This document shows positions 4,671 to 42,598 of a stretch of DNA of 64,000 bases, piece by piece. Both the position numbers and the translations under genes were made by a program. Each line of letters starts with the position of its first letter. Position 1 is the first letter of the stretch. The notes under the pieces were generated by a model that was not told where the DNA came from, did no database searches, and saw nothing but the letters and a program-made list of their open reading frames with translations. This DNA comes from Candidatus Eiseniibacteriota bacterium (GTDB lineage Bacteria; ARS69), in NCBI GenBank assembly GCA_052390515.1, contig JBQTGV010000165.1, positions 1 through 64,000 on the forward strand, read 5' to 3'.

Positions 4671-4890
4671 CCTCTGCAGCCGCATCCGCACTTCCACGTA
4701 CATGCCTGTTCGCCGCCTCTGGCGGACGTACTTTATGACCGTCCGATCCGTCTTTGTGTCAGAGCCCGCGCCCGGTCGGGCGGCATGCGCTGGTGGCGCT
4801 CGTCGTCGGCCCGGGGTTCCCCCGCGGAACCACGAACGAAGAGGCCAGGAACCCCGGCTGGACCCGATGCCGAGAAAGGACGCCCAGGCC

Positions 4891-7800
4891 ATGCGCCCCG
4901 CGCCCCCAATCCACTGCAGTCCACGACAGAGCCGATCCCGAGTCACGAGCACGTTTCTCGCCGCGCTCACGGTGCTCCTGGCGGCCCCGGTGGCCGCGCA
5001 ATGGACCACGCAGAGCCCCGTCCCCACGTACCTCGACGTCCGCGGCGTCGGCGCCCCGACCGCGGCGCGGGTCTTCCTCGCCACCGAAGACAACTCCTTC
5101 GACACCGGCGGGGCGCTGTGGGAGTCGACCGACGGCGGCTCCACCTGGATCCAGCGTGACGTGCCCGAGAGCCTCGGCGACCCGCTGCACGGGCTCTTCT
5201 TCCTGGATTCGCTGAACGGCTGGACCTTCGGCAACGCCAATTACCGCACCACGGACGGCGGGACGACCTGGACCGCGCTGCCCTTCCTGGGGTCCACGTA
5301 CTTCATGGAGTTTTACACCGCGAGCTTCGGCCTCGCGTCGGGGAACTTCGGCGCGCAGATCAGTCTCGACGGCGGGCTCACCTGGCAGGCCGCCGCGAAC
5401 GGCGAGACCGGCTTCGACTTCGCCGATGCGCTGACCGGCCTCGGCGCGTCGGCTACCGGGATCACCCGGACGACCGACGGCGGCGCCACGTTCGCGCCGG
5501 TTCTGGCGGGCGTCGCGGACGAGGTCATCTTCCTGTCCCCGACCGTTGCGGTCGGCATCGTCGACGGCGCGTTCACGCGCTCGACGGACGGCGGCGCCAC
5601 CTGGACCGCGGGAAGCTCCGCCGCTGGTCGCACCGCGCTCACGACCGTGTCCGCGGACGTCGTGCTCGCGTGGGGCCGGACGGGCTCCTTCCCGAGCTAT
5701 GACGACCGCGTCCTGCGCTCCGACGACGGCGGCCAGACCTGGACCGACCTCGGTGAGGTCCTCGCGGACGGCGTGCTCGCGTTCGTCGTGCCGGCGGCGT
5801 CGGTTGTCGTCGCCGCCGACCTCGACGGCGACATGTTCCGCTCCCTGGACGCGGGCCAGACCTGGACGCAGACCTTCGCCTCTCCTGGGCCGCTGCCGAG
5901 CTTCTTCAGCAGCGCCGCCCCCGCTTTCCCCAGCGCCACGACCGGCTACTTCGGCTACGGCGCGGGGTTCGCCATCAAGACGACGGACGGCGGCGCCTCG
6001 TGGACGCAGATCTCCAGCGGCACCGGGCAGTCCCTCAACGGCATGGCGAAGTTCCCCGGCGGGAGCCTGATCGCCGTCGGTGACAATGGGACGCTCCTCA
6101 CCAGCGCGGGCGGCACGCCGTGGATCCAGCATTCCTCGTTCACGACGAACAACCTGGTCGCCGTCGAGGTGCTCGGCGCGCAGGGCGTCGTCGCGGTGGA
6201 TCAGACCGGACTGCTCTACCGCAGCTCCGACGCGGGCGCCACCTGGACGGCCAGCACCGCCGCGCCGCCGAACCTGAGCGCCGCCGACCTGGACTTCGCC
6301 ACGCCTCTGGATGGCTGGGTGATCGGCTCTGGATTCGGGAGCGGCGCGCTCTTCCACACGACGGACGGCGGTGCTTCCTGGACTCCGGCGCCGAGCATTC
6401 TCGGCGGGTACGTCGCCGTGGACTTCGAGGGGGCGAACGGCTGGGCGGCCAACGTGAGCGGCCTCTACTACCGCACGACGGACGGCGGGGGATCCTGGAC
6501 CTCGGCCAACCTCCCCGGCGACTTCTTCAACGTCGAGGACATGGACTTCTGGAACGCGAACGTCGGTTACGCGGTGGGCTGGTGGGGCTACGCCGCGCGC
6601 AGCAGCGATGCCGGCGCGACCTGGCAGGTCCTGCCCACCCCGAACACCACCGACCACCTGAGCGACCTCTTCCTGGTCGGCCCGAACGAGCTGTGGGCCA
6701 GCACCTACAGCGGCGTGGCGTACTACTCCACGAGCGGCGGGCAGACCTGGTCGGTACTCGACTCCGGCACGCAGGGATTCGGGAGCTTCGCGGCCATCGT
6801 GGCGGACTCTTCCACGAACGCCTGGATGGCCGGCTGGCAGGGTTATATCGAGCACTTCGCCGGCACTCCGCCGCCGCCCCTGAACCAGCCGCCGGTGGCT
6901 TCGTTCTCGTTCGTGGCGAACGGGCTGACCGTGAGCTTCATCGACGCGAGCACGGATCCCGATGGCTCGGTGGTGAGCTGGGCCTGGGACTTCGGCGACG
7001 GCGCGGTCTCGAGCGAGCAGAATCCCACGCACACGTACGCGTCCGCCAACACGTGGCTCGTCAGCCTGACCGTCACCGACGACGACGGCGACACCGGCAC
7101 AGGCGGCGCTGCAGTGGTGGCGCAGCCCGGTCCGGGCGGGACCTTCGGCGATTTCACCGAAGTGACCCCGCTCGATCCGCTGTTCGTCACGTCCCAGAAC
7201 GAGGACTTCTGGGTGTCGACGACGGCGCCGGCCGACTACGACGGCGACGGCGATCTGGACATCGCCGTGCTCGGCTTCTACGTCGTGTACAACACCAGCG
7301 TGCAGGAGAGGCTCGTCCTGTTCCGCAACGACGGAGCGGCCGCTCCCGACGAATGGGACTTCACGTACATCGACCTGCCCATCGGCACGCTGACTTCCGG
7401 CTCCTCGGACCTCTCCTGGGGCGACGTCGACGGCGACGGGGACGACGACCTGGCCGTCGGAACGGACGGGCAGACGGTGATCTTCCGCAACGACGCGGGA
7501 GCGCTCACACTGACCGACACGGTCCTGCCGGCCTACTGGGAGGACAACTCCCAGGCCGACTTCGACCTGCGCTCCATCACCTGGGCGGACTACGACAACG
7601 ACGGTGATCAGGATCTGCTGCTGCCTTCGGTGTGGGACGACAGCACGTTCACCTATCGGACCGCGCTGATGCGCAACGACGGGGCGAACGGAACCGGAGG
7701 CTGGGTCTTCACCGAGGAGACCGCCGCCGGGCTCGCCGCGACCGCGCACGCGCAGAGCGCCTGGGCCGACTTCGACGGCGACAGCGATCTCGACCTCCTG

Positions 7801-9015
7801 CTCGTCCACCTCGCGCCGCTGACGGACGAGGGCTTCATCCGCCGCTACCGCAACGACGGCGGCGGAGCGTTCTTCGCCGAGGACATCCTGGACTCGCTCT
7901 CCATCGAGCACGGCGAGGCGCAGTGGGGCGACTACGACGGCGACGGCGACCTGGACGTGTTGGTCGCCGGGAACCTCAGAGAGCTCGACGGCACGTACAC
8001 GTTCGCGGCGCTGCGCATCTATCGCAACGACGCCGAGACGTACGTTCCGTTCGAGGTGATCGCGAACCCCGCTGCCGACGGCTGGTTCGATCTCACCGCC
8101 GCGACGTGGGCCGACTACGACTCCGACGGCGACGTCGACATCCTGCTGACCGGCACGTACAACTCGGGCTCGCAGATCGAGGGCCGGGCGCGCGTCTACG
8201 ACAACGCGGGCGGAGTCTTCACGGACTCCGGCAACGACCTGCCGGCGCCGCGCGCCAGCGCTTCGCGCGGCGGGACGTTCACCTGGCTCGACATCGACGG
8301 CGAAGGGGATCTCGATTACTTCATCGCCGGCGAGTACTTCGTGCCCGGCGGGAACGGGCTCATCGAGGCGCAGATGCACCTCTATCGCAACGACGTGACC
8401 GGCCAGAACGCGTCGCCGTCCGCGCCGCCGGCTCTCTCGGCCATGGTGGACGAGGGGACGGGGGTCGTGACCCTCTCCTGGACCGCCGCGAGCGACGACC
8501 TCACGCCGGCCGTGGCGCTGACCTACGACCTCGACGTTCGCCTGAACGGCGTTCCGGTGGCGACGCCGCGCCGACTGCCCGAGCCGGGCAACGTGAGCGC
8601 CGTCACTCAGTGGGCGCTGGGTGACTTGCCGGACGGTGCCTACGCGTGGACCGTTCGCGCGGTGGACAGCGCCTACAACAGCGGCCCGGCCGCGGCGGGC
8701 TCCTTCGGGATCGGGGTCCCGGTTTCCTCGCCGTCGGCGATCGGGTTGCCGCTGACCTTCGCCCTGTATCCGGGCTTCCCGAACCCGTTCGAGGCGTCGA
8801 CGACGTTCCGCTTCACGCTGCCGGAGCGTGCCGACGTGAAGTTGTCCGTATACGACGTGTCCGGTCGACTGGTCGTGCGGCTGGTCGACGAGCCACGTGT
8901 TCCGGGGATCCACGACGTCCGCTGGGACGCGCGCGGAGCCGCCAGCGGGATCTACTTCGTTCGCCTGTCGACGCCGAAGTTCGACGAGACGCGACGGGTT
9001 CTGCGGATGAGGTAG
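4891..9015 (+). CDS. Large secreted protein: YCF48/BNR (Asp-box) propellers, PKD, FG-GAP/VCBS repeats, FN3-like domain and FlgD/T9SS-like C-terminal domain
   Basis: Signal peptide (...LLAAPVAA-Q); many S/TxDGGxTW Asp-boxes; WDFGDG PKD motif; DYDGDGDLD repeats; C-terminal PNPF...VYDVSGRLV...WD...ASGIYFVRL. Start uncertain. Confidence 0.88.
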   Translation: MRPAPPIHCSPRQSRSRVTSTFLAALTVLLAAPVAAQWTTQSPVPTYLDVRGVGAPTAARVFLATEDNSFDTGGALWESTDGGSTWIQRDVPESLGDPLHGLFFLDSLNGWTFGNANYRTTDGGTTWTALPFLGSTYFMEFYTASFGLASGNFGAQISLDGGLTWQAAANGETGFDFADALTGLGASATGITRTTDGGATFAPVLAGVADEVIFLSPTVAVGIVDGAFTRSTDGGATWTAGSSAAGRTALTTVSADVVLAWGRTGSFPSYDDRVLRSDDGGQTWTDLGEVLADGVLAFVVPAASVVVAADLDGDMFRSLDAGQTWTQTFASPGPLPSFFSSAAPAFPSATTGYFGYGAGFAIKTTDGGASWTQISSGTGQSLNGMAKFPGGSLIAVGDNGTLLTSAGGTPWIQHSSFTTNNLVAVEVLGAQGVVAVDQTGLLYRSSDAGATWTASTAAPPNLSAADLDFATPLDGWVIGSGFGSGALFHTTDGGASWTPAPSILGGYVAVDFEGANGWAANVSGLYYRTTDGGGSWTSANLPGDFFNVEDMDFWNANVGYAVGWWGYAARSSDAGATWQVLPTPNTTDHLSDLFLVGPNELWASTYSGVAYYSTSGGQTWSVLDSGTQGFGSFAAIVADSSTNAWMAGWQGYIEHFAGTPPPPLNQPPVASFSFVANGLTVSFIDASTDPDGSVVSWAWDFGDGAVSSEQNPTHTYASANTWLVSLTVTDDDGDTGTGGAAVVAQPGPGGTFGDFTEVTPLDPLFVTSQNEDFWVSTTAPADYDGDGDLDIAVLGFYVVYNTSVQERLVLFRNDGAAAPDEWDFTYIDLPIGTLTSGSSDLSWGDVDGDGDDDLAVGTDGQTVIFRNDAGALTLTDTVLPAYWEDNSQADFDLRSITWADYDNDGDQDLLLPSVWDDSTFTYRTALMRNDGANGTGGWVFTEETAAGLAATAHAQSAWADFDGDSDLDLLLVHLAPLTDEGFIRRYRNDGGGAFFAEDILDSLSIEHGEAQWGDYDGDGDLDVLVAGNLRELDGTYTFAALRIYRNDAETYVPFEVIANPAADGWFDLTAATWADYDSDGDVDILLTGTYNSGSQIEGRARVYDNAGGVFTDSGNDLPAPRASASRGGTFTWLDIDGEGDLDYFIAGEYFVPGGNGLIEAQMHLYRNDVTGQNASPSAPPALSAMVDEGTGVVTLSWTAASDDLTPAVALTYDLDVRLNGVPVATPRRLPEPGNVSAVTQWALGDLPDGAYAWTVRAVDSAYNSGPAAAGSFGIGVPVSSPSAIGLPLTFALYPGFPNPFEASTTFRFTLPERADVKLSVYDVSGRLVVRLVDEPRVPGIHDVRWDARGAASGIYFVRLSTPKFDETRRVLRMR

Positions 9016-9779: not shown

Positions 9780-11555
9780 TCAGCGGTACAGCGACTTGAT
9801 CATGCCCCAGCTCGCCGGCTCGAGCGACGTGATCCCGCATCCGCAGTGGCTCTCGGTCCAGGCCGCCCCGCGGTCCTGACGACCCGGGGCCGCCACGAAG
9901 CAGTTCAGCGCAGCCAGGGAGTTGACGGCCGGGCTGCAGGACTGCAGCCGGAAAGGCTCCGCCGCGCAGAAGAGCGGATCCTCGGTCCGGTTGGACGCGT
10001 CGGACACGAACGCGGAGGAGCAACTACCGTCGCCCGCGGCGATCGGGGTCGTCGTGGGGTTCGCGGGGTCCACGTGCATCGTGGTGCAGTTGATCGCCGG
10101 CTTCGAACCGGTGCCGGTTCCGGTGACCGGCCGGCAGCGGACGCACGCTCCGTTCACCGTGTGGCTGATGAGGTTCCCGGCGATGCGTGCGTTGTTCTTG
10201 TTCGCCAGACCCACGTGGAGGATCCCGCCGCCGGCGCCGCCGGTCAGGGCCGCGCTGCAGCGGAAGATCGTATTGTTCAGGACCAACGAGATCGGGGAGG
10301 TGCCGAAGACTCCGCGGATCGACAGGCCGCCGCCGTCGTTCGCCGAGCAGTCCGCGATGACGTTCTCCTGGATGGTGAACGTGCTCTCCTCGATGTGCAA
10401 GCCGCCGCCGAGGTCGCCCGCGGTGCAGTTCGAGATCAAGACGCGCTGGACGATGCCGGAGGAACTGTCGGCGTACATCGCGCCGCCGCGGAAGTCGGCA
10501 TGGCACCCGGTGATCGAGGAGGTGGGGGCTGTATCGGTCGCGTCGATGCCGTCGAAGGTGATCGATCCCACCTGGCAATAGACCGCGCCTCCGAACGAGG
10601 TGAGCGCCCCTCCGGTCGCGGAGCACTGGTCGAAGCGGACGTCGATCAGGTTGGCCGAGCAGAACGGGAAGACGGCGAGGCCGCCGCCGAGCTGCTGGGG
10701 CGCCGAGCCGAAGAGATCGGCGGTGCAGTTGGTGATGTCGCAGTCGGAGAGGACTACATTGGAAGCGTCCTTGACGAGGATGCCTCCGCCGTAGGGAGAC
10801 GTGCACGCGTCGATGGTGCAGTCGGCGAAGCGCGCGCCGGAGGAGGTGGCCTGGATGCGGACGGCGCCGCCGCCGCCTTCGCCCGAGCGGTTGCCGCGCA
10901 TCACCGAGGCGGAGCAGTACACGGCGCTGTTGAACGCGTAGATGCCGCCGCCGGCGTTCGGCGCGACGCAGTCCTCGATCGTGTTGGAGATCAGCACCGG
11001 CGCCGAGTTCAGGATGTGGAAGCCGCCGCCCGAGCCCAGGGAGGAGTTGTCGTGGACGTCGTTCCCCTCGAACCGGACGGTGGATCCGCCGGAGATGTAG
11101 ACGCCGCCGCCAGCCCCCGCCTGACGATTGCCGGTGATCTCGTTGTTCGTGAACACCGGCGCGCCGCCGTTGACGAGGATGCCCGCGCCCGGCGAGCCTC
11201 CGCCACCGGTGATCAGGAAGCCGTCGACGATCGTCGCGGAGTTGACCGCGTTCGCGGTGACGGCCGGTCCGACCCCGCCACCGTTCAGGATCGTGACGTT
11301 CGCCGACGGATCCCGCGTAGCCTCCTGGAAGGACGAGTCGTAGCCGCCGCGTAGCTCGACGTCGTTCTTCAGGACGACGTTCTCGAAGTACGTGCCCGCC
11401 TGCACGACGACCCGGTCGGCGGCGCCGGCCCCGGCGAGAGCGGCGGCGATCGTGGGGTGGTCGAGCGGCACCCGGAGGTCCGCGGCCAGGGCCGGCCCGG
11501 CGGGGAGGGCGGAAAGAGCGAGGAGGGCGGCTCCCACGCTGCGGCTTCGGGTCAT
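9780..11555 (-). CDS. Secreted right-handed beta-helix (pectin-lyase-like) protein with a C-terminal SWGxIKxLYR tail
   Basis: Signal peptide; VPLDHPTIAAAL N-cap; repeated GGGI/GGAI and N/C ladders; ends TSLEPASWGMIKSLYR. Confidence 0.8.
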   Translation of the reverse strand: MTRSRSVGAALLALSALPAGPALAADLRVPLDHPTIAAALAGAGAADRVVVQAGTYFENVVLKNDVELRGGYDSSFQEATRDPSANVTILNGGGVGPAVTANAVNSATIVDGFLITGGGGSPGAGILVNGGAPVFTNNEITGNRQAGAGGGVYISGGSTVRFEGNDVHDNSSLGSGGGFHILNSAPVLISNTIEDCVAPNAGGGIYAFNSAVYCSASVMRGNRSGEGGGGAVRIQATSSGARFADCTIDACTSPYGGGILVKDASNVVLSDCDITNCTADLFGSAPQQLGGGLAVFPFCSANLIDVRFDQCSATGGALTSFGGAVYCQVGSITFDGIDATDTAPTSSITGCHADFRGGAMYADSSSGIVQRVLISNCTAGDLGGGLHIEESTFTIQENVIADCSANDGGGLSIRGVFGTSPISLVLNNTIFRCSAALTGGAGGGILHVGLANKNNARIAGNLISHTVNGACVRCRPVTGTGTGSKPAINCTTMHVDPANPTTTPIAAGDGSCSSAFVSDASNRTEDPLFCAAEPFRLQSCSPAVNSLAALNCFVAAPGRQDRGAAWTESHCGCGITSLEPASWGMIKSLYR

Positions 11556-11662
11556 GCGGGAGCGCTCCCGGGTTCGCGGACCGTGCCTCGAGGCTCGGCG
11601 AGGCTATCACGAGCGAGCTTCGCCTTCTATCCGACGCGGCGGGGAAATCGTCAAGAAGGGGA

Positions 11663-11691
11663 TGGACACCTGCACGGATGTTTAGTAGCTT
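11663..11691 (+). promoter_or_regulatory. Putative lexA promoter
   Basis: TGGACA-N17-TAGCTT; the imperfect palindrome TGGACA-N10-TGTTTA overlaps it. Confidence 0.45.
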
Positions 11692-11813
11692 GCCGTTCCG
11701 GAACCGACGGGGGGCGTGTCCTCTCACCCTGCCTCACACCGCAAGCCCACACCTGAGGGCGCCGCTTCCCGATCGGTTCCGACCAGTTCACCTCCGCCTC
11801 GGGAGGAAGAAGG

Positions 11814-12428
11814 ATGACGGAGCGTCCGCTCACGGCGAGACAGAACGAGATTCTCGAGTACCTGCGTGGCGAGATCGACCGGCGGGGGCTGCCGCCGACC
11901 ATCCGCGAGATCGGTGACGAGTTCGGGATCCGCTCGACGAAGGGCGTGGAGGATCATCTCGCTGCGCTCGAGCGGAAGGGGTTCATCCGCCGGGAGCGCG
12001 GGAAGTCCCGCGCCATCGAGATCAAGGACCGGCCGGATCTGCGCGGGGCGCGCCTCGTACCGCTGATCGGGCGGATCGCCGCGGGCAGTCCGGCGCTCGC
12101 GGTGGAGAATCACGAGGGCAGCTTCATCCTGGACGAGAGCCTGGTGGGCGCCGGGGACAACTTCCTGCTGCGCGTCACCGGGGACTCGATGACGAAGGCC
12201 GGGATCCTGGATGGAGACTTCGTCGTCGTGCGGTCTCAGAAGACGGCGCGGAACGGGGAGATCGTCGCTGCCCGCATCGGCGAGGAGGCCACGGTGAAGC
12301 GCTTCCAGAAGGACGGCGGTGCCGTGACTCTGCTGCCGGAGAACGATGCGTACGAGCCTATCGAGGTGGATCCGACCGGGGAGTTCGAGCTGCTCGGCAA
12401 GGTGGTGGGCGTCTACCGGCGGATCTGA
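11814..12428 (+). CDS. lexA: SOS repressor LexA
   Basis: LTARQNEIL...PPTIREI wHTH, IAAGSP Ala-Gly cleavage site, GDSM catalytic Ser, EATVKRF catalytic Lys. Confidence 0.96.
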   Translation: MTERPLTARQNEILEYLRGEIDRRGLPPTIREIGDEFGIRSTKGVEDHLAALERKGFIRRERGKSRAIEIKDRPDLRGARLVPLIGRIAAGSPALAVENHEGSFILDESLVGAGDNFLLRVTGDSMTKAGILDGDFVVVRSQKTARNGEIVAARIGEEATVKRFQKDGGAVTLLPENDAYEPIEVDPTGEFELLGKVVGVYRRI

Positions 12429-12510
12429 GGCACGGAGCCGGGCCACGGTGGGCCGTGGCGAGGCCGACGACGGTGCGCCGGCGATGCCAGAGCCGGCCGG
12501 CCCGAGCGCG

Positions 12511-12540
12511 TTGACACTCGGAAACGCCGGCTGCTACCTT
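12511..12540 (+). promoter_or_regulatory. sigma70-like promoter for tRNA-Glu
   Basis: TTGACA-N18-TACCTT with a TG extended -10. Confidence 0.55.
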
Positions 12541-12566
12541 CGCCGCCCGCGACCGTTCGCCCATGC

Positions 12567-12639
<73 letters not shown>

Positions 12640-12713
12640 CCCAGGCCCGCGAGACGAATGACTCGTGGACCGCGAAGGGCAGCGAGCCAGCCTGGCCGCC
12701 AGCCGGCGCCCCC

Positions 12714-12749
12714 TGGACCTCGGGACTACTTGTGACTATCATGTAGTCA
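12714..12749 (+). promoter_or_regulatory. Toxin-antitoxin promoter and operator
   Basis: TGGACC-N17-TATCAT overlapped by the inverted repeat TGACTA-N5-TAGTCA; ATG lies 6 nt after the -10. Confidence 0.65.
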
Positions 12750-13012
12750 TGCGCACGGTCCGGATCGGCGAACTGAAGGCGCGGCTGAGCGAGTATCTGC
12801 GGGGCGTTCGCCGCGGGCGACCTCTTACGGTGCTCGATCGGGACACGCCCATCGCGGTGATCACGCCGTACCCCGGCACCGGCGGGGGATCCCTCGTCGT
12901 GCGCAGCCCAGCGGCCACGAGCCCGAAGCTGACCAAGGTGCCGTTGCCGCCTCCGCTTCCGGTGACCATCGATGCGGCCGAGCTGCTCCTCGAAGAGCGC
13001 CGGGAGCGATGA
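12749..13012 (+). CDS. Phd/YefM-family antitoxin
   Basis: MRTVRIGELKARLSEYLRGVRRG...VLDRDTPIAVI; overlaps the toxin start (ATGA). Confidence 0.9.
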   Translation: MRTVRIGELKARLSEYLRGVRRGRPLTVLDRDTPIAVITPYPGTGGGSLVVRSPAATSPKLTKVPLPPPLPVTIDAAELLLEERRER

Positions 13013-13425
13013 TCGCGTACATCGACTCGTCGGTGCTCCTGCGGGTCTTGCTGGGCCAGGAAGGGCGGCTCGGCGAGTGGAAGAAGATCGAGACGGGCGT
13101 GGCGAGTGCCCTGGTCGAGGTCGAATGCCTCAGGACCCTCGATCGTCTTCGACTCGCCGCGCGGGTGCCGGAGTCCGAGATCGCCGTCAGGCGCGAGGGC
13201 GTGTTTCGACTTCTCGAAGCGATGGAGGTCGTCGAGCCGAGTTGGCCGATCCTTCGCCGTGCTTCGCAGCCGCTCCCTGCCGCGCTCGGTACGCTCGACG
13301 CGATCCACTTGGCTACCGCGATGTCGTGGCAGGAGTCGAGAGGCGCGGCCCTGGTCATGGCCACTCACGACGCCGCCCTCGCGCTCGCCGCGCGTGCCTC
13401 CGGGCTGCGGGTCGTGGGCGTCTGA
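13009..13425 (+). CDS. vapC: VapC-family PIN-domain toxin
   Basis: YIDSSVLL, VEVEC, TLDAIHLATA and THD acidic PIN residues. Confidence 0.9.
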   Translation: MIAYIDSSVLLRVLLGQEGRLGEWKKIETGVASALVEVECLRTLDRLRLAARVPESEIAVRREGVFRLLEAMEVVEPSWPILRRASQPLPAALGTLDAIHLATAMSWQESRGAALVMATHDAALALAARASGLRVVGV

Positions 13426-13438
13426 GGCACCCCGACCG

Positions 13439-14335
13439 CTACCGGACCAGCACCACGCGGCCGGCGACGCGGGTGGCACCACTCTCCAGCACGCAGAAAT
13501 AGACGCCGGCAGGCGCGGCGTCTCCGAACTGGCTGCAGCCGTCCCAGGTCGCGGCGAATTTCCCCTCCGTCCTCGAGATGGAGTGCTCGAGGGTTCGCAC
13601 GTGTCGCCCGGCCGCATCGAAGATGCGCAACGAGACGACGGCCGCTCCCGGAACCGTGTATCCGATCGTCGCTCGGCTGCGGAACGGGTTCGGCCATCCC
13701 GGAAGTACGGCGAAGCCGGTGGCGGCGGGTCCCGCGGTGGCCGTGACTCCGGTGGCGCCGATCTTCGTGATGCCGAGGGCATAGTCGCCGTTCGGATCGG
13801 TGTTGTCGTAGTAGAGCTGGTCGTGCCCGCTGGCGAACAGGTGCGTGGCGCCCGCGGGCACCACGACCACGGTGGAGTCGGCGCGGAGGTCCTCGGGGAT
13901 GTCAGTCGACTGGCCGCCGCAGAAGTAAGTGTTGGCGGTGATGAAGTCGACGCCGGCGTCGATCGCATCCGGCACGCGAGGGTGCGCCGAGCCGGTCAGG
14001 AGAGTCGCGCTGCCGCTGAACACCGCGATGGTGGTCCGCGGAGTGTCGGTACCCGGCCCGTTGTCGAAGCCACCCACGTTCTCGAGCAGGACCACGTCGC
14101 CGGGCTGGATGCCGAGGTCCGCGAGCAACACCGGAACGGCGGCCAGAGCGGGATCGGTGCAGACGTGCAGGTAGGTACCCCTCGAATCCAGGGGGATCTC
14201 GAGACCCCGGCTCGGCGCGGGAATGGTCCACGTGGCCGCGCACCAGAGCGCCATGTGGACCAGCAGCCCATGATGGGCCCGGGCAGGCGACTTCGGAAGA
14301 GGTCGGAGTGTCCGAGACGGACAGCTTGCAGGCAC
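13439..14335 (-). CDS. Secreted protein with FlgD/T9SS-like C-terminal domain
   Basis: C-terminal PNPF...IFDAAGRHVRTL...WDG...APAGVYFCVL. Start taken as GTG 14335 after GGGAGG (alternative ATG 14254). Confidence 0.75.
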   Translation of the reverse strand: MPASCPSRTLRPLPKSPARAHHGLLVHMALWCAATWTIPAPSRGLEIPLDSRGTYLHVCTDPALAAVPVLLADLGIQPGDVVLLENVGGFDNGPGTDTPRTTIAVFSGSATLLTGSAHPRVPDAIDAGVDFITANTYFCGGQSTDIPEDLRADSTVVVVPAGATHLFASGHDQLYYDNTDPNGDYALGITKIGATGVTATAGPAATGFAVLPGWPNPFRSRATIGYTVPGAAVVSLRIFDAAGRHVRTLEHSISRTEGKFAATWDGCSQFGDAAPAGVYFCVLESGATRVAGRVVLVR

Positions 14336-14443
14336 GGCGCGCCTCCCAGTAGCTCTCTGCGGTCGCAGAGAGCGGTTTGCGGATCTTCGTGAGCGGCGGA
14401 GCCCCGCCGCACTTCCTGCACGCGCAGGATCGGCGCGCGAGGT

Positions 14444-14548
14444 GACACGTATCGTGATCACGCCGGCACCGATGGGGGCATCCCTGGTCGTGCGCAGGCC
14501 GCGCCCCAGGAGCCCAAAGCTGACCAGTGAACCGCTGCGGCCGGCCTC
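14444..14548 (+). pseudogene. Degenerate partial copy of the Phd antitoxin gene
   Basis: GTGATCACGCC...CCGGCACC...TCCCTGGTCGTGCGCAG...AGCCCAAAGCTGACCA aligns with 12842-12950 (VITP...SLVVR...SPKLT); no intact 5' half. Confidence 0.75.
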
Positions 14549-14663
14549 AGCTAACACTGCCGCAGGCCGCCGCCGACCGGCTGCGTAGAACGCCCGCTCC
14601 GCCCGTTCCTTCTCGGCTCGCGCATGTCCACGGCCGGACGGTGCATCACACCTTGGTCGCCGC

Positions 14664-15698
14664 TTACCCGCGCGGGACATCCGCCGGCACGATGTCGAGG
14701 TCGCGCTTCTCGCGTCCGCGGAGCACGGTGAGAGTCACCGGCTTTCCGACCGGCCACTCCGAGAGGAAGCGGTGCAGGTCGTCCACGCCGCCGACCGGCA
14801 ATCCGTCGATCGCGACGATGCGATCTCCCGGCAGGATCCCGGCCCGACCCGCCGGCCCGCTCTCCTCGACGCCGGCCACGCGCGCCGCGCGTTCCAGCGG
14901 GAGCCCGTGGTACCGGGCGACGCTCCGCGCCACCGGGACGTCGGCCCCGGCGATTCCGATCCAGGCGCGCCGCACGCGCCCGCGCGCGAAGAGCTGCGGC
15001 ACGACCCAGCGCACCGTGCCGGAGGAAACGGCGAACCCGATGCCCTGCGCCATGGCGATGATCGCCGTGTTGATGCCCACGACGGCGCCGCGGCTGTCGA
15101 CCAGCGGTCCGCCGGAGTTGCCGGGGTTGAGCGGCGCGGTGTGCTGGATGACGTTCTCGATCAGCCGGCCGTCACGCCCGCGGAGCGCGCGCGCCGGCGA
15201 GCTCACGACGCCCGTCGACACGGACGAGTGGAAGCCGAGCGGGCTGCCGATGGCGATCACGAGCTGTCCGACACGCAGCGGCTGCTCGCTGATCGTCGCG
15301 TGGGGAAAGCCGTCCCCGACGACCCGGACCAGCGCGAGATCCGTCGACGGGTCGTCTCCCACGAGGCGGGCGGGACGGGACTCCCCGTCGGCCAGCGTGA
15401 CCTCCAAGCTCGAGGCGCCCTGCACCACGTGGCTGTTGGTCAGCAGGTAGCCGTCCGGGGCGATCAGGACGCCGGATCCGGATCCGCGGGGCCGTTCGTC
15501 GCCCGAGGGCGTCCGCTGGCGGACCGCAAGGCTCACGACGGCGGGGGAGACGGTGTCGACGACGCTCGTCACCGCCCGGGAGTAGGCGTCGAGCAGCTCC
15601 ACGTCGCCCGTGTGCTCGCGGGGGATGATGCAGCGGCGCTCCCGTTCCTCATCGCCCGGCGTGACGGGTGCCGGGCCGGCCCACGTGATGTTCGCCAT
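14664..15698 (-). CDS. HtrA/DegP-like serine protease with one PDZ domain and no obvious signal peptide
   Basis: LTNSHVV, DPSTDLAL and NPGNSGGPL catalytic triad; PDZ with GPAGRAGI; AGGAGG RBS before ATG 15698. Confidence 0.9.
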   Translation of the reverse strand: MANITWAGPAPVTPGDEERERRCIIPREHTGDVELLDAYSRAVTSVVDTVSPAVVSLAVRQRTPSGDERPRGSGSGVLIAPDGYLLTNSHVVQGASSLEVTLADGESRPARLVGDDPSTDLALVRVVGDGFPHATISEQPLRVGQLVIAIGSPLGFHSSVSTGVVSSPARALRGRDGRLIENVIQHTAPLNPGNSGGPLVDSRGAVVGINTAIIAMAQGIGFAVSSGTVRWVVPQLFARGRVRRAWIGIAGADVPVARSVARYHGLPLERAARVAGVEESGPAGRAGILPGDRIVAIDGLPVGGVDDLHRFLSEWPVGKPVTLTVLRGREKRDLDIVPADVPRG

Positions 15699-15854
15699 GG
15701 CCTCCTGGCGGATCGAGTGCGTCCAAGATGGGGCGGGTCGGGGATGCGGACCAGATCTCGGGCGTCGATGCCCTGGACATCGGAACCCTCCCCGGCTATG
15801 GGGTAGCTGGCTGCTCGCCCGTCCGGACACCGGTGAGGAGAAGCGGCGAATCAC

Positions 15855-17516
15855 GTGATCGCGCTCGCACTGCTGCTCGCCTCCCTCGCCGTGCAACCCG
15901 CCGGGACGGGAACGCTCCCGCAGTCCCGGGACGAGATCCTCTTCGTCGGAGACAGCGTCACCGCCGGCGTCTGGTTCCTCGGTCTCAGCGACCGGACCGC
16001 GGCGGAAGCGTGGCCGTCGGTCGTCCTCCGCCGCTTGGGGCTACCCGGCGAGTCCACGCGCCTCGACGGAACGTACCCGCTCGATCATCTGGACCTGACG
16101 CGCCGCGGTGCCGGCCTTCTCGGGACGCGTTACACTTGGCGGGCCCTCGGCGCGATCCTCGGACGCAGCCGGCCGCTCTATGCGGAGGGGGAGCCGCGGA
16201 GCATCGTGGCCGTTCCGGGTCAGACGCTCGGCGACGTCCTCCGGCAGAGCTCCGATCACTACGGCCCGCGCGCGACCGGGTGGGTCTTCGGCGCGCTCTT
16301 CCTGCCGCGCCACCTCACCGCCGTCGAGACGATCGAGCAGGGGGCGAATCGACCTCTCTGGATCGTGCTGGGCATCGGTGCGAACGACCTGCTCTCGCCC
16401 TTCGGAATCGTGGGCGGCGCGTCGGCTCCCGCGGTCGAATCGTTCGAGGCCGACTTTCGCGAGCTGACGCAGCGCCTGCGCGCCGTGATGCCGCCGGACG
16501 AGCCCGCTTCGCAGATGCTCTTGATGACGCTCCCCGACGTCACCGCGCTCCCGTTCCTGCAGCCCGTCGGCCCCGGGGCGAAGGACGCAGGCGGAGAGCC
16601 GCTGCCGGCGGGGACGAAGACCTCGGCGTTTCTGCTGCCGCTGCGGAACGATCGCTTCGAGGGCGACGAGGTGTGGACGCCGGAGGAACTGGAGACGGCT
16701 CGCGCGCTCGGCGACGGCTACAACGCCGCCATCCGCGAGGTCGCGGCGGAGGGCGGGTACGGCATCGTCGACCTCGAGCGGCTGAGCGCCCGCCTCGGCG
16801 CCGATCCCGCGTTCGCCGATCCTCTCTCGCCCTACTTCAGCCCCGATCTGCATCATCCGTCGGGACGCTTGCACGCGGAGATCGCGGAGGCAGTGCTCCA
16901 GGCGATGGCGGACGCAGCCGGCGTGGCCGTGCCTGCCGCGAGCCCGCCGGTCGATCCGCCCGCCGATCCGCTCCCTGAGACCGCTCTTCCCGAGAACGCG
17001 GACTTCACCGAGCAGGAGCTCGCGCGCGTGAGGTCCTTCACGCGGATCGCGCTGCTCGGGATGGAGAGCGGATACTTCCCGCCCGGGGCCACGTTCCGAG
17101 GCGCGATCGAGATCGGCGCGCAGGCCGGGTCCGAACGCGCCGGACGGTGGGCGGCCGCTCTACACGCCGGGGCCGAGCTTGGACCCGGTCCCGTCACGAG
17201 CCGGTGGGTCTCGCGGCTTTTCCTGCAGGGGCGGACCGGCGCGTTTCGTGCGGGCGACGACGCAATCCGCTGGTTTCCGGCCGACGGCTCCGATCTGCGG
17301 CTCGGCCTAGCCTTCGAGCCGCTCGGCGCGTGGCGCTGGAAGCGCGTGGAGGTCGGATCGCGCTACGGCTTCTCCGGCGGCTTCGGCTGGTACGGCCGGG
17401 CGGAGTGGCGGGCGCTCTACGCGGAGGTCCTGTCCGGCGGCCTCGAGCCGGACCGGTTCGAGGCGGGAGTTCGCCTCGGTGCGCCGTTGCGGCGGCCGGG
17501 ACACAACGGCAACTGA
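15855..17516 (+). CDS. Secreted SGNH/GDSL hydrolase with a C-terminal beta-rich domain
   Basis: Signal peptide; FVGDSVTAG block I, IGANDL block III, DLHHPS block V. Confidence 0.75.
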   Translation: MIALALLLASLAVQPAGTGTLPQSRDEILFVGDSVTAGVWFLGLSDRTAAEAWPSVVLRRLGLPGESTRLDGTYPLDHLDLTRRGAGLLGTRYTWRALGAILGRSRPLYAEGEPRSIVAVPGQTLGDVLRQSSDHYGPRATGWVFGALFLPRHLTAVETIEQGANRPLWIVLGIGANDLLSPFGIVGGASAPAVESFEADFRELTQRLRAVMPPDEPASQMLLMTLPDVTALPFLQPVGPGAKDAGGEPLPAGTKTSAFLLPLRNDRFEGDEVWTPEELETARALGDGYNAAIREVAAEGGYGIVDLERLSARLGADPAFADPLSPYFSPDLHHPSGRLHAEIAEAVLQAMADAAGVAVPAASPPVDPPADPLPETALPENADFTEQELARVRSFTRIALLGMESGYFPPGATFRGAIEIGAQAGSERAGRWAAALHAGAELGPGPVTSRWVSRLFLQGRTGAFRAGDDAIRWFPADGSDLRLGLAFEPLGAWRWKRVEVGSRYGFSGGFGWYGRAEWRALYAEVLSGGLEPDRFEAGVRLGAPLRRPGHNGN

Positions 17517-17582
17517 TCGTGGGTGAGGCTGCCCTCGTTGCGATGAACCGCCAGCATCGACGAGGATCGGCCAAACGTCGCT

Positions 17583-17620
17583 GCGATGGGTCCGCATCGC
17601 TTGCACGCGACGTTGCAAGC
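17583..17620. promoter_or_regulatory. Overlapping inverted repeats (candidate operators)
   Basis: GCGATG-N6-CATCGC and GCTTGCA-N8-TGCAAGC upstream of the lipoprotein gene. Confidence 0.35.
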
Positions 17621-17712
17621 TGCGTCGTCCGCGTGGCATCATCTTCTGGCAGGTTTCACCTTCGCGCGAGGCGTGCCCCTCGCCCCGCGACACACATCGG
17701 GAGAGACTTTCG

Positions 17713-18909
17713 ATGAAGCATCTTGCTCTGCTCGGGATCGCCTGCGGCGCTGCCGCGCTGGCTGTGGCCGGCTGCGGCGACAGCCTCAGGGATCCGGGCG
17801 CGATGAACTCCGGTCCCCTCGGCGCCGCCCCCATCGACGACACGATCCTCCGCGGGGACGTCGGCGACTTCGTCTGGTTCGACGCGAACGACAACGGCCT
17901 GCAGGACGACGGCGCGATGTCCGGCGTGAACGGCGTCGACGTGATCATCGACGTGATCCGGATCGATGGCAGCCCTTGGACGATGACGTTCACGACGGCG
18001 AACGACCCCGCGACGGGCCTGCCTGGCTGGTACAACTTCAACGCCGTCCCGGCGGGCAACGCCACCGGCTACGTGGATCCGGCGACGATTCCCGCTGGCC
18101 TGATGCTGGGCTCGCATGCCTGCGGCGGACCGATCCAGTTCGTCATCGGGCAGGGCCCGGTGGGCAACAACAACGACACGATCGACTTCTGCCTCGTCGC
18201 GGTTCCGGCGAAGCCGGGCGCGATCGGCGACTTCGTCTGGTGCGACGCGAACGACGACGGCGTGCAGGATCCGGGCGAGCCGGGGATTCCCGGGATCGTG
18301 GTGAACCTGGACTGCGACGGTGCGCTCGCCTCGACGGTGACGGACGCGAACGGCTACTACCTCTTCACCGGAGTTCCCACGGGCGAGCTGTGCACGGTGA
18401 CGCTCGACCCGCTCAGCTTCCCCGCCGACAAGACGCCGGGTACGCACTGCCCGACGACCCGCACGGTGACGCTGGCCGACGGCGAGACGAACCTGCTGCA
18501 GGACTTCTGCCTGATCGTCATCCCGCCGCCGCCGGGCGGCGATGAGGGTTGCACGCCGGGCTACTGGAAGAACCACACCGGCTCGTGGGCTCCCACCGGC
18601 TACACGACGGGGCAGGCGCTGAGCACCGTGTTCAACATGGGGAACTTCCCCGCACTGGCGTCGACGTCGCTGCACGCGGCGCTCTCGTTCAAGGGAGGGC
18701 CCGGGGCGAGCGGTGGAGCGCAGATCATGCTTCGCGCCGCGGTGGCCGCTCTGCTGAACACTTCCCATCCGGGTGTGAGCTATCCGCGCTCGGAGGCGGA
18801 CGTGATCCTGGACGTGAACGCGGCCTTGGCGACCGCCGACCGCACGACGATGCTCGGCCTCGGCACGGAGCTCGACAACGACAACAACCTGGGGTGTCCT
18901 CTGAACTGA
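17713..18909 (+). CDS. Lipoprotein with two SdrD B-like domains and a C-terminal GCTPGYWKNH domain
   Basis: Lipobox LAVAG-C; two copies of GDFVWxDANDxGxQD; TDANGYYLF; Pro linker; GCTPGYWKNH. Confidence 0.8.
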   Translation: MKHLALLGIACGAAALAVAGCGDSLRDPGAMNSGPLGAAPIDDTILRGDVGDFVWFDANDNGLQDDGAMSGVNGVDVIIDVIRIDGSPWTMTFTTANDPATGLPGWYNFNAVPAGNATGYVDPATIPAGLMLGSHACGGPIQFVIGQGPVGNNNDTIDFCLVAVPAKPGAIGDFVWCDANDDGVQDPGEPGIPGIVVNLDCDGALASTVTDANGYYLFTGVPTGELCTVTLDPLSFPADKTPGTHCPTTRTVTLADGETNLLQDFCLIVIPPPPGGDEGCTPGYWKNHTGSWAPTGYTTGQALSTVFNMGNFPALASTSLHAALSFKGGPGASGGAQIMLRAAVAALLNTSHPGVSYPRSEADVILDVNAALATADRTTMLGLGTELDNDNNLGCPLN

Positions 18910-18934
18910 GCCCGCTGCCGACGAGATGACCCGA

Positions 18935-18976
18935 CCGGCCCGGCGACCCTCAGCGGTCCGCCGGGCCGGCGCGTTT
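18935..18976 (+). terminator. Hairpin terminator between convergent genes
   Basis: CCGGCCCGGCG...CGCCGGGCCGG stem followed by a short T run. Confidence 0.55.
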
Positions 18977-19027
18977 CAGGGCAGAGCTGCGCGGCCGCGC
19001 CGGCCGGAAGGGCTGGTCAGCTCCCCG

Positions 19028-19675
19028 TCAGCGAGAAGGTCTCCGTAGGCGGGACGACGCGCCGTCTCGGGCGAGGTACGTGGCCGTCGGGACATCGTGC
19101 CACGCACGGTCGACGCCGCGGACCTTGGCGACCACGTACCAGCCGAAGGCGAAGGTCGCCGCGGCGACGGCGGCGACGATGAGCTCCCACCGCGCCACCG
19201 CCAGCCCGAGGACGGCGAGGGAGAGCGGCAGCGTGGCCAGAGCGAAACGGAACGCGCGCGGGCCCCGTCCGGCGGGGCGCCCGTCGTTGCCCACGACCCT
19301 GAGCCCGGCCAGGCGCTGCCCAGGCGTCGAGCCGAACAGCGGCCCGGCGAGCAGCACGACGAGGACAGCGAAGGGGAAGCCGTACACGAGCCGGCCGGCG
19401 AGGGCCATCACCATGGGGATCGGCCCCGTCCAGAGGGTGCCGGGCTCGCCGACATGGAACGTGGGGACCGAGCGGTCGAGAAACCAAGTGCCCGTGCTCG
19501 GTGCGAGCACGGCGGCGAGAGCGATGCCGATCAGGGAATCGAGCGCTCCGGCGAGCAGTCGGCGCCGTCCGACGCCGCGCTCAGTCTCCGGGCCGGCGAT
19601 AGGCGGCCTTGATGTCGCTCCAGGAGGTGGCTTCGACGGGCGTTCCCTTCGCCATGGTGATGGTCCCCGCTCCAC
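19028..19675 (-). CDS. RDD-family membrane protein (start uncertain)
   Basis: RRLLAGALD, STPGQRLAGLRVV and RAWHD motifs. Confidence 0.75.
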   Translation of the reverse strand: MERGPSPWRRERPSKPPPGATSRPPIAGPETERGVGRRRLLAGALDSLIGIALAAVLAPSTGTWFLDRSVPTFHVGEPGTLWTGPIPMVMALAGRLVYGFPFAVLVVLLAGPLFGSTPGQRLAGLRVVGNDGRPAGRGPRAFRFALATLPLSLAVLGLAVARWELIVAAVAAATFAFGWYVVAKVRGVDRAWHDVPTATYLARDGASSRLRRPSR

Positions 19676-20174
19676 CGCCGCCGTAGCTGAACGACCCGCT
19701 CATCACGTTGTCGGTGGCAGTCATCGTGAAGATGTACGAGCCGAACCCGAGCGGAGCACCGACGAAGCCCGCTCCGGACGTGTTGTTCGGCCCGACGTCG
19801 TTGACCGAGCCCGTTCCCGTGCTCGTCAATCCGGCTCCGGCATCGAACTGGAACGTGAACGTCAGCATGTTGCCGGTGATGGTCCCGCTGGCGGTGAAGG
19901 GCTCCGCCGCCCCGAGATTGACCCCGGTCAGGTCGCACGTCCCGGTCGCGCTGAAGGTCGACCCGTTCACCGAGACGTCCCAGACCATGGGGCCGGTGAC
20001 GAAGAAAACGGTGTCGATCCAGGCACCCGACCAGCTTCCGTCAAGGGCGGGTAGGGCAGCGGCCGAAGAGAAGGACGGCGCACCGGCCGGCTTGGCGCCG
20101 GTGACGGCGAGCCCCGCGGCCCCCAGGAAGAGGAGCGCGAGGTACCCGAGGAGGTTGCGGTCCGTGGGGCGCAT
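19581..20174 (-). CDS. Small secreted beta-rich protein with a C-terminal SWxxIKxxYR tail
   Basis: Signal peptide; Gly/Thr-rich strands; ends TPVEATSWSDIKAAYRRPGD; AAGGAG RBS. Confidence 0.75.
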   Translation of the reverse strand: MRPTDRNLLGYLALLFLGAAGLAVTGAKPAGAPSFSSAAALPALDGSWSGAWIDTVFFVTGPMVWDVSVNGSTFSATGTCDLTGVNLGAAEPFTASGTITGNMLTFTFQFDAGAGLTSTGTGSVNDVGPNNTSGAGFVGAPLGFGSYIFTMTATDNVMSGSFSYGGGGAGTITMAKGTPVEATSWSDIKAAYRRPGD

Positions 20175-41350: not shown

Positions 41351-42598
41351 ATGAAGATCCGCGCCGAGACTCGTGTCGCCTCCCGCCTGGCTGCGGTCGC
41401 CGCGGCGGCGTGCGCACTCGCCGGTCCGGCTACGGCGTTCGAGGCCACCCTGCGCGTGCCGGCGGACTACCCCACCATCACGGCGGCCATGGAAGCGGCG
41501 GGGGCCTGGGACGAAGTGGTCGTGGCGCCGGGAGTCTATACGGAGCGCGTGACCGTGAAGGACGGCGTCGTGCTCCGCTCCGAGCGGGGGCCGTCCGAGA
41601 CGACGCTGGCCTACGGGGGCGCCACGTCGACCTCCGATCAGGGCGAAGCCGTCGTCACCCTGAGCCGCTGCACGAACTCCACGCAGCTCGTGGGCTTCTC
41701 GATCGACGGGAAGGACCTGGCCAAGCGCGGCATCCTGGTGTTCGGAGACGGTTCGCCGGTCATCTCCGGATGCGTCATCTACGGCGCGCTGAACGGGATC
41801 GGCGCGCATCGCAACGCTTCGCCCTACATCACCGACACCGTCGTCGAGCGCTGCACGATCGCCGGGATCCTCGTCCAGGGGGCGTCCGGCGACATCCGCG
41901 ATTGCGAGCTCCGGGCCGGCAAGCAGTTCGGCCTGATCGTCGAGGGCACGACGACGCCGCTCACCGTGCGGCGCACCGTCATCTGTGAGAACGAGCAGGC
42001 CGGCGTGCGCGCGACGGAAGGCGACTTCTCCATCATCGGCGGGTCGGTCTCCGCGAACGGCAACACCGGGATCATCCTCGAGTACGTGTCGCCGGTCCTG
42101 GAAGGCGTTCTCGTCGACGGCAACAAGAACATCGGCATCTCCCTGGAGAACTCGACCGGGACGCTCCTCGGCTGCACGATCCGCAACAACAATTTCGGCG
42201 TGATCATCCGCGGAGCGGGGGACCCCAAGGTGTATCGCAGCGTCTTCGAGGACAACGCGACCTATCACATCGGCGTGCAGGGTTCCGTCGTCCCCATCAT
42301 CGGGGGCAGCATGGAGAACGCCAACCTCTTCCTCGGACAGACGATCGCGGCCATCCAGACGGAGTGCCCCGTCCCGATCAACGCCACTTACAACTACTGG
42401 GGCAAGCCCTGCGCCACCCGGGATCAGGTCAAGCGCCTGGCCGGGGCGAAGGACGTGGTACGTAAGCCCTGGGTCACGGTCGATCTCCGGCACTCGTTCG
42501 AGAGCTGCGAGGAAGCGAAGGAGCACAGCCGCCAGGCGGTGACACCCGACGCCGCTTCCGCGCCCCCGCCCGAAGAAGGCGAGGAGTCGACGACGTGA
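41351..42598 (+). CDS. Secreted right-handed beta-helix protein (NosD/pectin-lyase-like)
   Basis: Signal peptide; RVPADYPTITAA N-cap; GI...N repeats; NATYNYWG. Confidence 0.8.
   Translation: MKIRAETRVASRLAAVAAAACALAGPATAFEATLRVPADYPTITAAMEAAGAWDEVVVAPGVYTERVTVKDGVVLRSERGPSETTLAYGGATSTSDQGEAVVTLSRCTNSTQLVGFSIDGKDLAKRGILVFGDGSPVISGCVIYGALNGIGAHRNASPYITDTVVERCTIAGILVQGASGDIRDCELRAGKQFGLIVEGTTTPLTVRRTVICENEQAGVRATEGDFSIIGGSVSANGNTGIILEYVSPVLEGVLVDGNKNIGISLENSTGTLLGCTIRNNNFGVIIRGAGDPKVYRSVFEDNATYHIGVQGSVVPIIGGSMENANLFLGQTIAAIQTECPVPINATYNYWGKPCATRDQVKRLAGAKDVVRKPWVTVDLRHSFESCEEAKEHSRQAVTPDAASAPPPEEGEESTT

Follow-up and report, generated by a model that had tools for sequence, protein, structure and literature searches.

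The window analysed here, a stretch of 64,000 nucleotides (positions 1 to 64,000 of the forward strand of contig JBQTGV010000165.1, assembly GCA_052390515.1), comes from a Candidatus Eiseniibacteriota bacterium and encodes two unrelated exported proteins, named cargo 1 and cargo 2, that share a short C-terminal tail. This tail, its distribution and the peptidase gene to which it is linked are the subject of this report. The genome containing the window comprises 4.27 Mb in 223 contigs with 70% G+C, and the window is its contig C165. Two further proteins of the window, which end in a FlgD-type C-terminal domain (CTD) as known from secretion systems of type IX (T9SS), were used for contrast. The features of the window are as follows.

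9780..11555 (-): cargo 1, an exported right-handed beta-helix protein of 591 amino acids (aa) (PF13229, E 2.3e-33) with the C-terminal end CGCGITSLEPASWGMIKSLYR
9783..9827 (-): tail of cargo 1, SLEPASWGMIKSLYR, with the stop codon at 9780-9782 directly after
19581..20174 (-): cargo 2, an exported protein of 197 aa and of no known family, with the C-terminal end TPVEATSWSDIKAAYRRPGD
19584..19640 (-): tail of cargo 2, PVEATSWSDIKAAYRRPGD, a variant with S instead of G and a 4-residue extension beyond YR
41351..42598 (+): beta-helix-like protein with a signal-peptide-like start, without tail and without CTD
4702..9015 (+): contrast protein, exported, 1437 aa, with a FlgD/T9SS-type CTD at its end (PF13860 at 8794-8970; its 26.4 bits are slightly under the cut-off, and the protein served as seed of our CTD model)
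13439..14680 (-): contrast protein of 413 aa with a FlgD/T9SS-type CTD at its end (PF13860 at 13496-13675, 33.4 bits)

Cargo 1 and cargo 2 both end in [ST]-W-[GS]-x-I-K-x-x-Y-R and the N-termini of both pass a crude signal-peptide heuristic, confirming an earlier note on this DNA that had described a common tail on two unrelated secreted proteins. Cargo 2 matched no Pfam family, and neither cargo matched a relevant NCBIfam family. Besides its own entry, five relatives of cargo 2 were retrieved from a collection of 5.8 billion proteins; all are annotated as "hypothetical protein", and all five preserve W, K and R in the tail. An AlphaFold 2 model of cargo 2, built on a 6-sequence alignment with a mean predicted local distance difference test (pLDDT) score of 41.7, was set aside. 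The protein at 41351-42598, which the earlier note had cited as a relative of cargo 1 without the tail, indeed lacks it; the similarity of the two is confined to ~120 N-terminal aa (39% identity, E 1e-12).

The tail was found to be frequent in the genome. All 46,216 stop-to-stop segments of 40 aa or longer in the six frames were scanned with a loose regular expression. It matched 51 times; 38 of the matches were of the SWG type and lay 0-9 residues from the stop (31 of the 38 exactly at it), and the remaining 13 were dispersed through Arg-rich junk off-frames. With a relaxed definition of the tail, 54 open reading frames (ORFs) were collected, and one more truncated by a contig end brings the number to at least 55. 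BLAST clustering of the 54 ORFs after removal of the tails gave 26 unrelated core clusters, the biggest of which consists of 18 beta-helix paralogues including cargo 1. The cargo families comprise beta-helix proteins, two cupredoxins, LTD, CBM96, CHRD, NHL and PD40 propellers and many proteins without a family, and each tail-bearing protein scanned showed a family for the core alone or none at all. Signal-peptide-like N-termini were assigned by one crude rule to 37 of 44 genes with the tail, 103 of 161 with the CTD and 912 of the 2605 remaining genes. The expectations of the earlier note that the motif would prove common, restricted to C-termini and enriched on proteins with signal peptides were thus borne out, as was its description of a tail without a transmembrane (TM) helix.

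The tails of this genome gave the logo C-x2-P-V-S-V-E-x2-S-W-G-x-[VI]-K-x-L-Y-R, and the overall consensus is C-x2-P-V-x-V-E-x2-[ST]-W-G-x-[IV]-K-x-[LM]-[YF]-R-stop. W and K are invariant in the 54 tails of this genome and in 134 of 134 tails from other genomes, and G is present in 50 of the 54. K is separated from the stop by 3-5 residues in 130 of the 134 other-genome tails and by 4 residues in 37 of the 54; the stop stands straight after R in 37 of the 54, and R is the final residue in 38. Tolerated variants include the endings …SMMD, …SLINE and …RRPGD, extensions of 1-9 residues and loss of YR. A conserved Glu is found at position -4 in 24 of 54 tails of this genome and in 80 of 134 array tails, with small residues next. 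The constrained position and the diversity of the cargo show that the tail is a tag, separate from the core fold, and we are highly confident that it is a tag of the sorting type.

T9SS-type CTDs are also encoded in this genome, with 148 PF13860 matches and 161 of 2944 gene calls recognised by our own CTD model. Tail and CTD were mutually exclusive (CTD on 0 of 44 tail genes), yet the tail takes the place of the CTD on homologous cores, which answers the question of overlap raised in the earlier note. C20:2000 (tail) and C142:7553 (CTD) share 43% identity over 305 aa, C147:17569 and C166:6151 share 42% identity over 308 aa, and further pairs of this kind are C114 with C94:4173 and C201 with C154:25572. 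Among the secretion components, SprA was identified with 521 bits, a PorU-like ORF truncated by a contig end with 342 bits, and PorV-like ORFs with 67-70 bits, which is under the cut-off; secretins are also encoded. A two-gene cassette was additionally observed in seven copies (C126:8054-12897; also on C143, C177, C207, C58, C35 and C5), in which a beta-helix protein of ~1160-1350 aa with a FlgD-type CTD is followed by a beta-helix protein of ~440 aa with an SWG tail, so that each operon holds one cargo per signal class. An upstream CTD neighbour, seen at 9 of 42 tail genes vs 5.5% of all genes, was dropped as evidence of docking because its enrichment is due to expansion of this one cassette.

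When 25 tails from this genome and seven differently labelled lineages were compared with NCBIfam release 20 and the Pfam sorting and CTD models, none matched, and no description of the tail was found in the literature searched, supplementary files being left out. No pathway to which the motif is already assigned was therefore met with.

The distribution of the tail was determined by counting matches to the DNA pattern TGGGGNNNNRTNAARNNNNNNTWYMGNTRR, with the reversed pattern as a control. In the phylum of the window (own phylum), matches were found in 12 of 12 genomes (18-53 each) and the control gave 0. In the phylum of a Fibrobacteraceae-labelled metagenome-assembled genome, referred to as the second phylum, 114 of 121 sampled genomes carried tails (0-43 matches each), amounting to ~1243 exact-pattern matches and 1 control match in all; three of the seven genomes with zero matches (G023, G038 and G059) carry variant tails, e.g. 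…SWGAIKSMMD. A stricter DNA pattern applied to 185,579 species genomes retrieved at least 124 loci, and all 124 loci fetched close long open frames with the tail. The labels among the 80 matches listed were Eisenbacteria, Fibrobacteraceae, Latescibacterota, Krumholzibacteriia, Zixiibacteriota, Cloacimonadota, Effluviviaceae, Gemmatimonadota and others, and the genome labelled Gemmatimonadota falls within the own phylum.

Two phyla proved to be tail-poor. The tail was present in 5 of 61 genomes of a Zixibacteria-like phylum and in 14 of 41 genomes of a Cloacimonadota-like phylum, with a single match each. In the former a single conserved protein of ~150 aa bears the tail; in the latter it is one conserved protein of ~235 aa, after which comes a protein of ~125 aa whose own tail is acidic. 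No C25 peptidase gene was found beside these solitary tail proteins in the loci examined (L271-L275 and L276-L277, covering both phyla).

The candidate for an enzyme that acts on the tail is PorU-T, a distinct paralogue of the T9SS sortase PorU, encoded in this genome at C145:259-4338 (1359 aa). The first lead to it came from 14 second-phylum loci with a single exact-pattern tail. The tail proteins of these loci are differing small proteins with no single conserved family, and at 4 of the 14 a C25 peptidase with a CTD adjoins the tail gene. A shared neighbour "family" at 7 of the 14 was rejected, its members having been grouped mainly through their CTD. In a tree and in a similarity comparison, three of the C25 proteins, one from the additional locus L181 and the C145 protein, which is the second PorU paralogue of this genome, formed the PorU-T clade. 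On the PorU model NF033707, which has a cut-off of 420 bits, PorU-T scored 198 bits (this genome), 199 bits (L200) and 131-172 bits (L176, L178, L181), and PorU proper scored 466-537 bits (L188, L195). A third PorU-related clade of the second phylum, PorU2-like (L180, L183-L185), scored 236-292 bits on NF052324, the NCBIfam "PorU2" model; two tail genes lie directly upstream of its member at L180, and none was found at the other three examined. The His/Cys dyad of PorU-T (H974 and C1012) was invariant in 31 of 31 aligned sequences, PF01364 was matched, and PorU-T has a FlgD-type CTD of its own (PF13860 at C145:4087-4287, 36.8 bits). PorU-T is accordingly predicted from sequence to be a separate PorU clade with an intact active site.

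Orthologues of PorU-T were found in 10 of 12 own-phylum genomes, and the remaining two genomes have a completeness of 82% and 73%. In the second phylum, 120 of 121 genomes gave a match at E <= 1e-20, some of the weaker of which may be paralogues, and 104 gave a match at 1e-45 or better. In the two tail-poor phyla (61 and 41 genomes) no PorU-T was found: the profile gave partial matches only, of 90-185 bits in the Zixibacteria-like and 92-143 bits in the Cloacimonadota-like phylum, all under the 227 bits of the PorU proper of this genome, compared with 1938 bits for PorU-T itself. Co-occurrence of tail and PorU-T therefore amounts to four phylum-level points, and it is limited to that level because both are near-universal in the tail-rich phyla, within which phylogenetic profiling was uninformative.

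The position of PorU-T relative to tail genes was then recorded. In five own-phylum contexts (L200-L204) a gene for a tail protein of ~200-260 aa lies immediately upstream of PorU-T on the same strand. In the genome of the window the contig begins inside a tail gene (C145:1-111), whose product ends in AVEATSWGQVKGLYR (…SWGQVKGLYR before the stop), ~150 nt before PorU-T. No tail gene was found upstream at L205-L208, and L209 was too short for reading, so that a tail gene stands directly upstream of PorU-T in 6 of 10 readable own-phylum contexts. For the second phylum, the upstream regions of 60 PorU-T matches were taken in listing order, and the 54 of at least 2.5 kb were usable. One to five same-strand tail ORFs were present within 3 kb in 38 of these 54, as were tail ORFs in 3 of the 6 short regions, and no opposite-strand tail ORF was found in the second-phylum upstream regions. 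The estimated chance rate is ~1% per 3-kb window (from ~1243 matches in 121 genomes). In a control, tail ORFs occurred within ~6-8 kb of PorU-proper or PorU2-like genes at 0 of 17 loci, which were the top of the Pfam C25 list with L180-L182 left out, these three having been chosen for an adjacency already seen. The search for machinery proposed in the earlier note, which knew of none, has thus yielded a candidate by synteny, and its profiling approach gave no information inside the tail-rich phyla.

Genes for cell-envelope glycans were observed on the flanks of PorU-T (L201:51-2277, L178:5-1456, L179:1-1963 and L176:2270-6650). Downstream, AnmK and a MurQ-like SIS protein are encoded in the own phylum, and SpoIID and a glycoside hydrolase family 3 protein in the second phylum, where the upstream side encodes a polysaccharide pyruvyl transferase and a family 2 glycosyltransferase. 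These flanks may hint at the nature of an acceptor molecule.

The tail proteins encoded with PorU-T belong to one family. In BLAST comparison with the tails removed, 124 of 134 array proteins and six proteins of this genome (C74:14587, C74:15291, C26:7357, C11:69604, C33:451 and C35:8844) fell into one cluster. An AlphaFold 2 model of an operon tail protein, built on a 100-sequence alignment, had a mean pLDDT of 83.9 and a predicted template modelling score (pTM) of 0.74, and it shows a predicted beta-sandwich at residues 26-146, a linker at 160-167 with pLDDT <50 and a helix at 173-179 that corresponds to the tail. When the modelled sandwich was compared by VIA-align, rows 1-17 were all cohesins (Z 9.4-12.4, rmsd (root-mean-square deviation) 2.3-3.0 A, 111-119 residues), the best being 2vo8_A with Z 12.4 and 2.7 A over 117 aa, and Foldseek matched the modelled protein to 2ccl_A (E 2.1e-4). 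By its model, the core thus has the nine-stranded cohesin jelly-roll fold. The residues after K vary among the arrays (SMYR, SMMD, KQY, SLINE), which indicates that what is essential in the tail is the core [ST]-W-G-x-[IV]-K at a distance of 3-5 residues from the C-terminus.

A conserved exported protein of ~200 aa was observed upstream of the cohesin-fold tail proteins (in this genome at C74:14587-15824, C62:68995-69780 and C19:29613-30242; a relative at L200:6229-8287). By eye, its C-terminus holds two dockerin-like D-x-N-x-D-G-x-V-x2-D-L repeats followed by a C-x2-C-P end, and a weakly similar protein (E 1e-4) occupies the same position in the second phylum. Pfam gave no family, cohesin and dockerin included, on the operon tail protein or on this neighbour, and the one match of PF00404 (dockerin) in the genome is not on the neighbour. 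The cohesin-fold and dockerin-like proteins could represent a cohesin–dockerin pair in a diderm.

In the window itself, a LexA-like repressor gene recognised by eye adjoins cargo 1, and a putative antitoxin and PIN-domain toxin pair of small overlapping genes was likewise recognised by eye; the window features given for these observations are 11814-12428 (+) and 12665-13425 (+).

Our leading reading, for which we consider the chances evenly divided, is that the tail is a sortase-type surface-anchoring tag read by PorU-T. In this reading, the tail would be a small C-terminal sorting tag on Sec-exported proteins, built of a flexible linker and then an amphipathic helix of 7-9 residues that is required to lie 3-5 residues from the free C-terminus. 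The tag would be recognised by PorU-T at the cell surface. By analogy with PorU, the enzyme would cleave off the tail, possibly behind the conserved Glu (position -4 or -3), and would then hand the cargo on to an acceptor at the surface. Cargo with the tail would form a surface-anchored class of its own alongside the CTD cargo, with the small cohesin-fold proteins of the PorU-T operon as its founding substrates. PorU is described in the part of PMC10202324 available to us as a surface-located Cys/His peptidase that retains its own CTD, cleaves CTDs at T/E/D/N|G/A/S and transpeptidates the cargo onto a sugar of A-LPS (a form of lipopolysaccharide, LPS); the suggested cleavage after Glu fits this preference. 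That PorU-T does the job of PorU for the tail cargo is the most economical reading because the enzyme is conserved, predicted to be catalytically intact, equipped with its own CTD and co-encoded with tail proteins in one operon. We infer that PorU-T recognises the tail, and likewise the cleavage, the attachment and the way through the outer membrane. With respect to the earlier note, which had taken the tail for a sorting, export or anchoring signal, the behaviour of a tag is supported by sequence, and the sorting or anchoring function is still an interpretation.

Several observations weigh against this reading. Four of 10 own-phylum and 16 of 54 second-phylum PorU-T contexts have no upstream tail gene, most tail genes, including both of the window, do not lie near PorU-T, and some adjoin other C25 genes (L166, L180, L182). 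The synteny concerns one cargo family only, the cohesin-fold proteins, and could mark a special relation between these and PorU-T while being silent on the tail. The co-occurrence has just its four phylum-level points, and conserved solitary tail-like proteins exist in the two phyla where PorU-T was not found. The gene calls and signal-peptide calls are crude heuristics of our own. An enzyme at the surface moreover requires cargo that has passed the outer membrane, and for T9SS the portions of PMC11969387 and PMC10202324 available state the need for an Ig-like CTD of at least 60 aa; secretins are also present.

Of the alternatives, the one that survives best is that the tail is retained as a non-covalent anchor or docking peptide for the outer membrane, LPS or a receptor, and that PorU-T acts only on its partners in the operon, or on something else. 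The modelled structure, in which a flexible linker bears a short amphipathic helix, and the richness of the tail in interfacial W, Y, K and R would suit such a role, as would the many tail genes unlinked to PorU-T and the solitary tail proteins of the phyla where it was not found. However, the invariant W, G and K and the fixed distance of 3-5 residues from the end favour a specific protein reader over membrane affinity, and reading by a receptor does not explain why the tail genes keep their same-strand position beside a sortase paralogue that is catalytically intact. We regard this alternative as unlikely.

Slightly less likely still, in our view, is that the tail is a signal for translocation across the outer membrane, either as a minimal substitute for the CTD or for another exporter, e.g. 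type II, and thus serves export and not attachment. Such a role would account for the replacement of the CTD by the tail on homologous cores and for the confinement of the tail, among the phyla sampled, to those with T9SS-type CTDs and SprA/PorU/PorV-like genes; the presence of secretins would fit, and later processing by PorU-T would be compatible with it. However, the known T9SS signals, short ones included, still comprise Ig-like strands and the B, D and E motifs, spread across ~60 aa, as far as the available part of PMC11969387 describes them, and the tail has none of these. It also matches no CTD model, and no tail gene was seen in linkage with a translocon component.

It is very improbable that a PDZ-type protease or chaperone of the periplasm recognises the tail as a quality-control or degradation tag, in the manner of the outer-membrane-protein motifs read by DegS or the tags read by Tsp: the strictly C-terminal position and the aromatic residue near the end are suggestive of it, but the last residue is Arg and not aromatic or hydrophobic, the tail may be extended by 1-9 residues or lose YR, a degradation tag on ~55 conserved, diverse and stable-looking cargo proteins is implausible, and no link to a PDZ protease gene was seen, although no systematic search for one was made. 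That the shared ending is an artefact of chance or of composition in a genome with 70% G+C can be dismissed with near certainty, since it is refuted by 18-53 matches per genome vs 0 in the control of 12 genomes, by the one control match in 121 genomes and by the closing of long open frames in all 124 matches fetched.

Extending the anchoring reading, we tentatively suggest, at somewhat less than even confidence, that candidate phyla of the Fibrobacteres–Chlorobi–Bacteroidetes (FCB) group possess, besides the known CTD/PorU pathway, a parallel pathway of a ~17-residue tail and PorU-T, whose primordial substrates would be cohesin-fold proteins that build cell-anchored, cellulosome-like docking platforms on diderms.

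C-terminal sorting tags set which proteins reach the bacterial surface, and earlier tags opened up the sortase, exosortase and T9SS pathways. The tail described here marks ~1-2% of the genes in entire, mostly uncultured phyla (Eisenbacteria-like and Fibrobacterota-like) and is invisible to current annotation. With PorU-T as a candidate, the tag becomes a testable hypothesis in cultured relatives. It would sharpen the prediction of surface proteomes from metagenomes and, if the tail suffices for anchoring, would provide a very small surface-display tag for these bacteria. The cohesin-fold operon proteins hint at cellulosome-like assemblies in Gram-negative polymer degraders.

Among known systems, the T9SS type A CTD and PorU (TIGR04183, PF18962, PF13860; NF033707) resemble the tail in several respects. 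Both are C-terminal signals on Sec-exported cargo of mostly extracellular type, which for the tail comprises beta-helices, propellers, CBM, LTD and cupredoxins. The tail likewise stands at the extreme C-terminus in a genome with translocon and attachment genes, occurs in the same phyla, is interchangeable with the CTD on homologous cores and is genomically tied to a His/Cys peptidase of the PorU family that itself bears a CTD. Unlike the CTD, an Ig-like sandwich of 60-100 aa, the tail has 15-20 residues, modelled as a linker and a short helix, and lacks motifs B, D and E; T9SS signals described as "short" occur in Prevotella intermedia, but in the available part of PMC11969387 even these measure ~60 aa and contain Ig-like strands and the B, D and E motifs. 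Unlike PorU, the enzyme linked to the tail forms a separate clade under the NF033707 cut-off, and its cleavage and attachment of tail cargo are putative.

The LPXTG/sortase, PEP-CTERM/exosortase, GlyGly-CTERM/rhombosortase and MYXO-CTERM/myxosortase systems also mark many unrelated exported proteins per genome by a short signature at their very C-terminus. The tail is similarly lineage-restricted and, as far as its four phylum-level points go, occurs together with a candidate endopeptidase, sometimes encoded beside it. In the catalogue of small sorting domains, each is built of three parts including a TM helix, and they were found by the same logic of co-occurrence, according to the part of 10.1101/2023.06.07.544157 that was accessible. 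The tail differs from them in having no TM helix or hydrophobic stretch and no Arg cluster, only a single terminal R, and is therefore unable to sit in the inner membrane; in contrast to their integral membrane proteases, the candidate PorU-T is a secreted C25 peptidase.

The anchoring scaffoldins of Gram-positive cellulosomes, which combine a cohesin with a sortase signal or an S-layer homology (SLH) module (e.g. ScaE of Ruminococcus flavefaciens, PDB 2zf9), are comparable in that the operon tail proteins have a modelled cohesin fold and a putative signal of the sortase type at their end, and that their genes adjoin that of a putative sortase. They differ in that the host here is a diderm, Pfam finds no cohesin or dockerin, and the dockerin-like partner was recognised by eye only. 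The beta-signal of outer-membrane proteins and the PDZ-binding motif have an aromatic or hydrophobic last residue with a free carboxylate, unlike the tail, which mostly ends in R and tolerates extensions or other endings. The tail is thus new to the curated libraries and to the literature searched, and a C-terminal tag paired with a sortase-type enzyme is an arrangement of a known kind.

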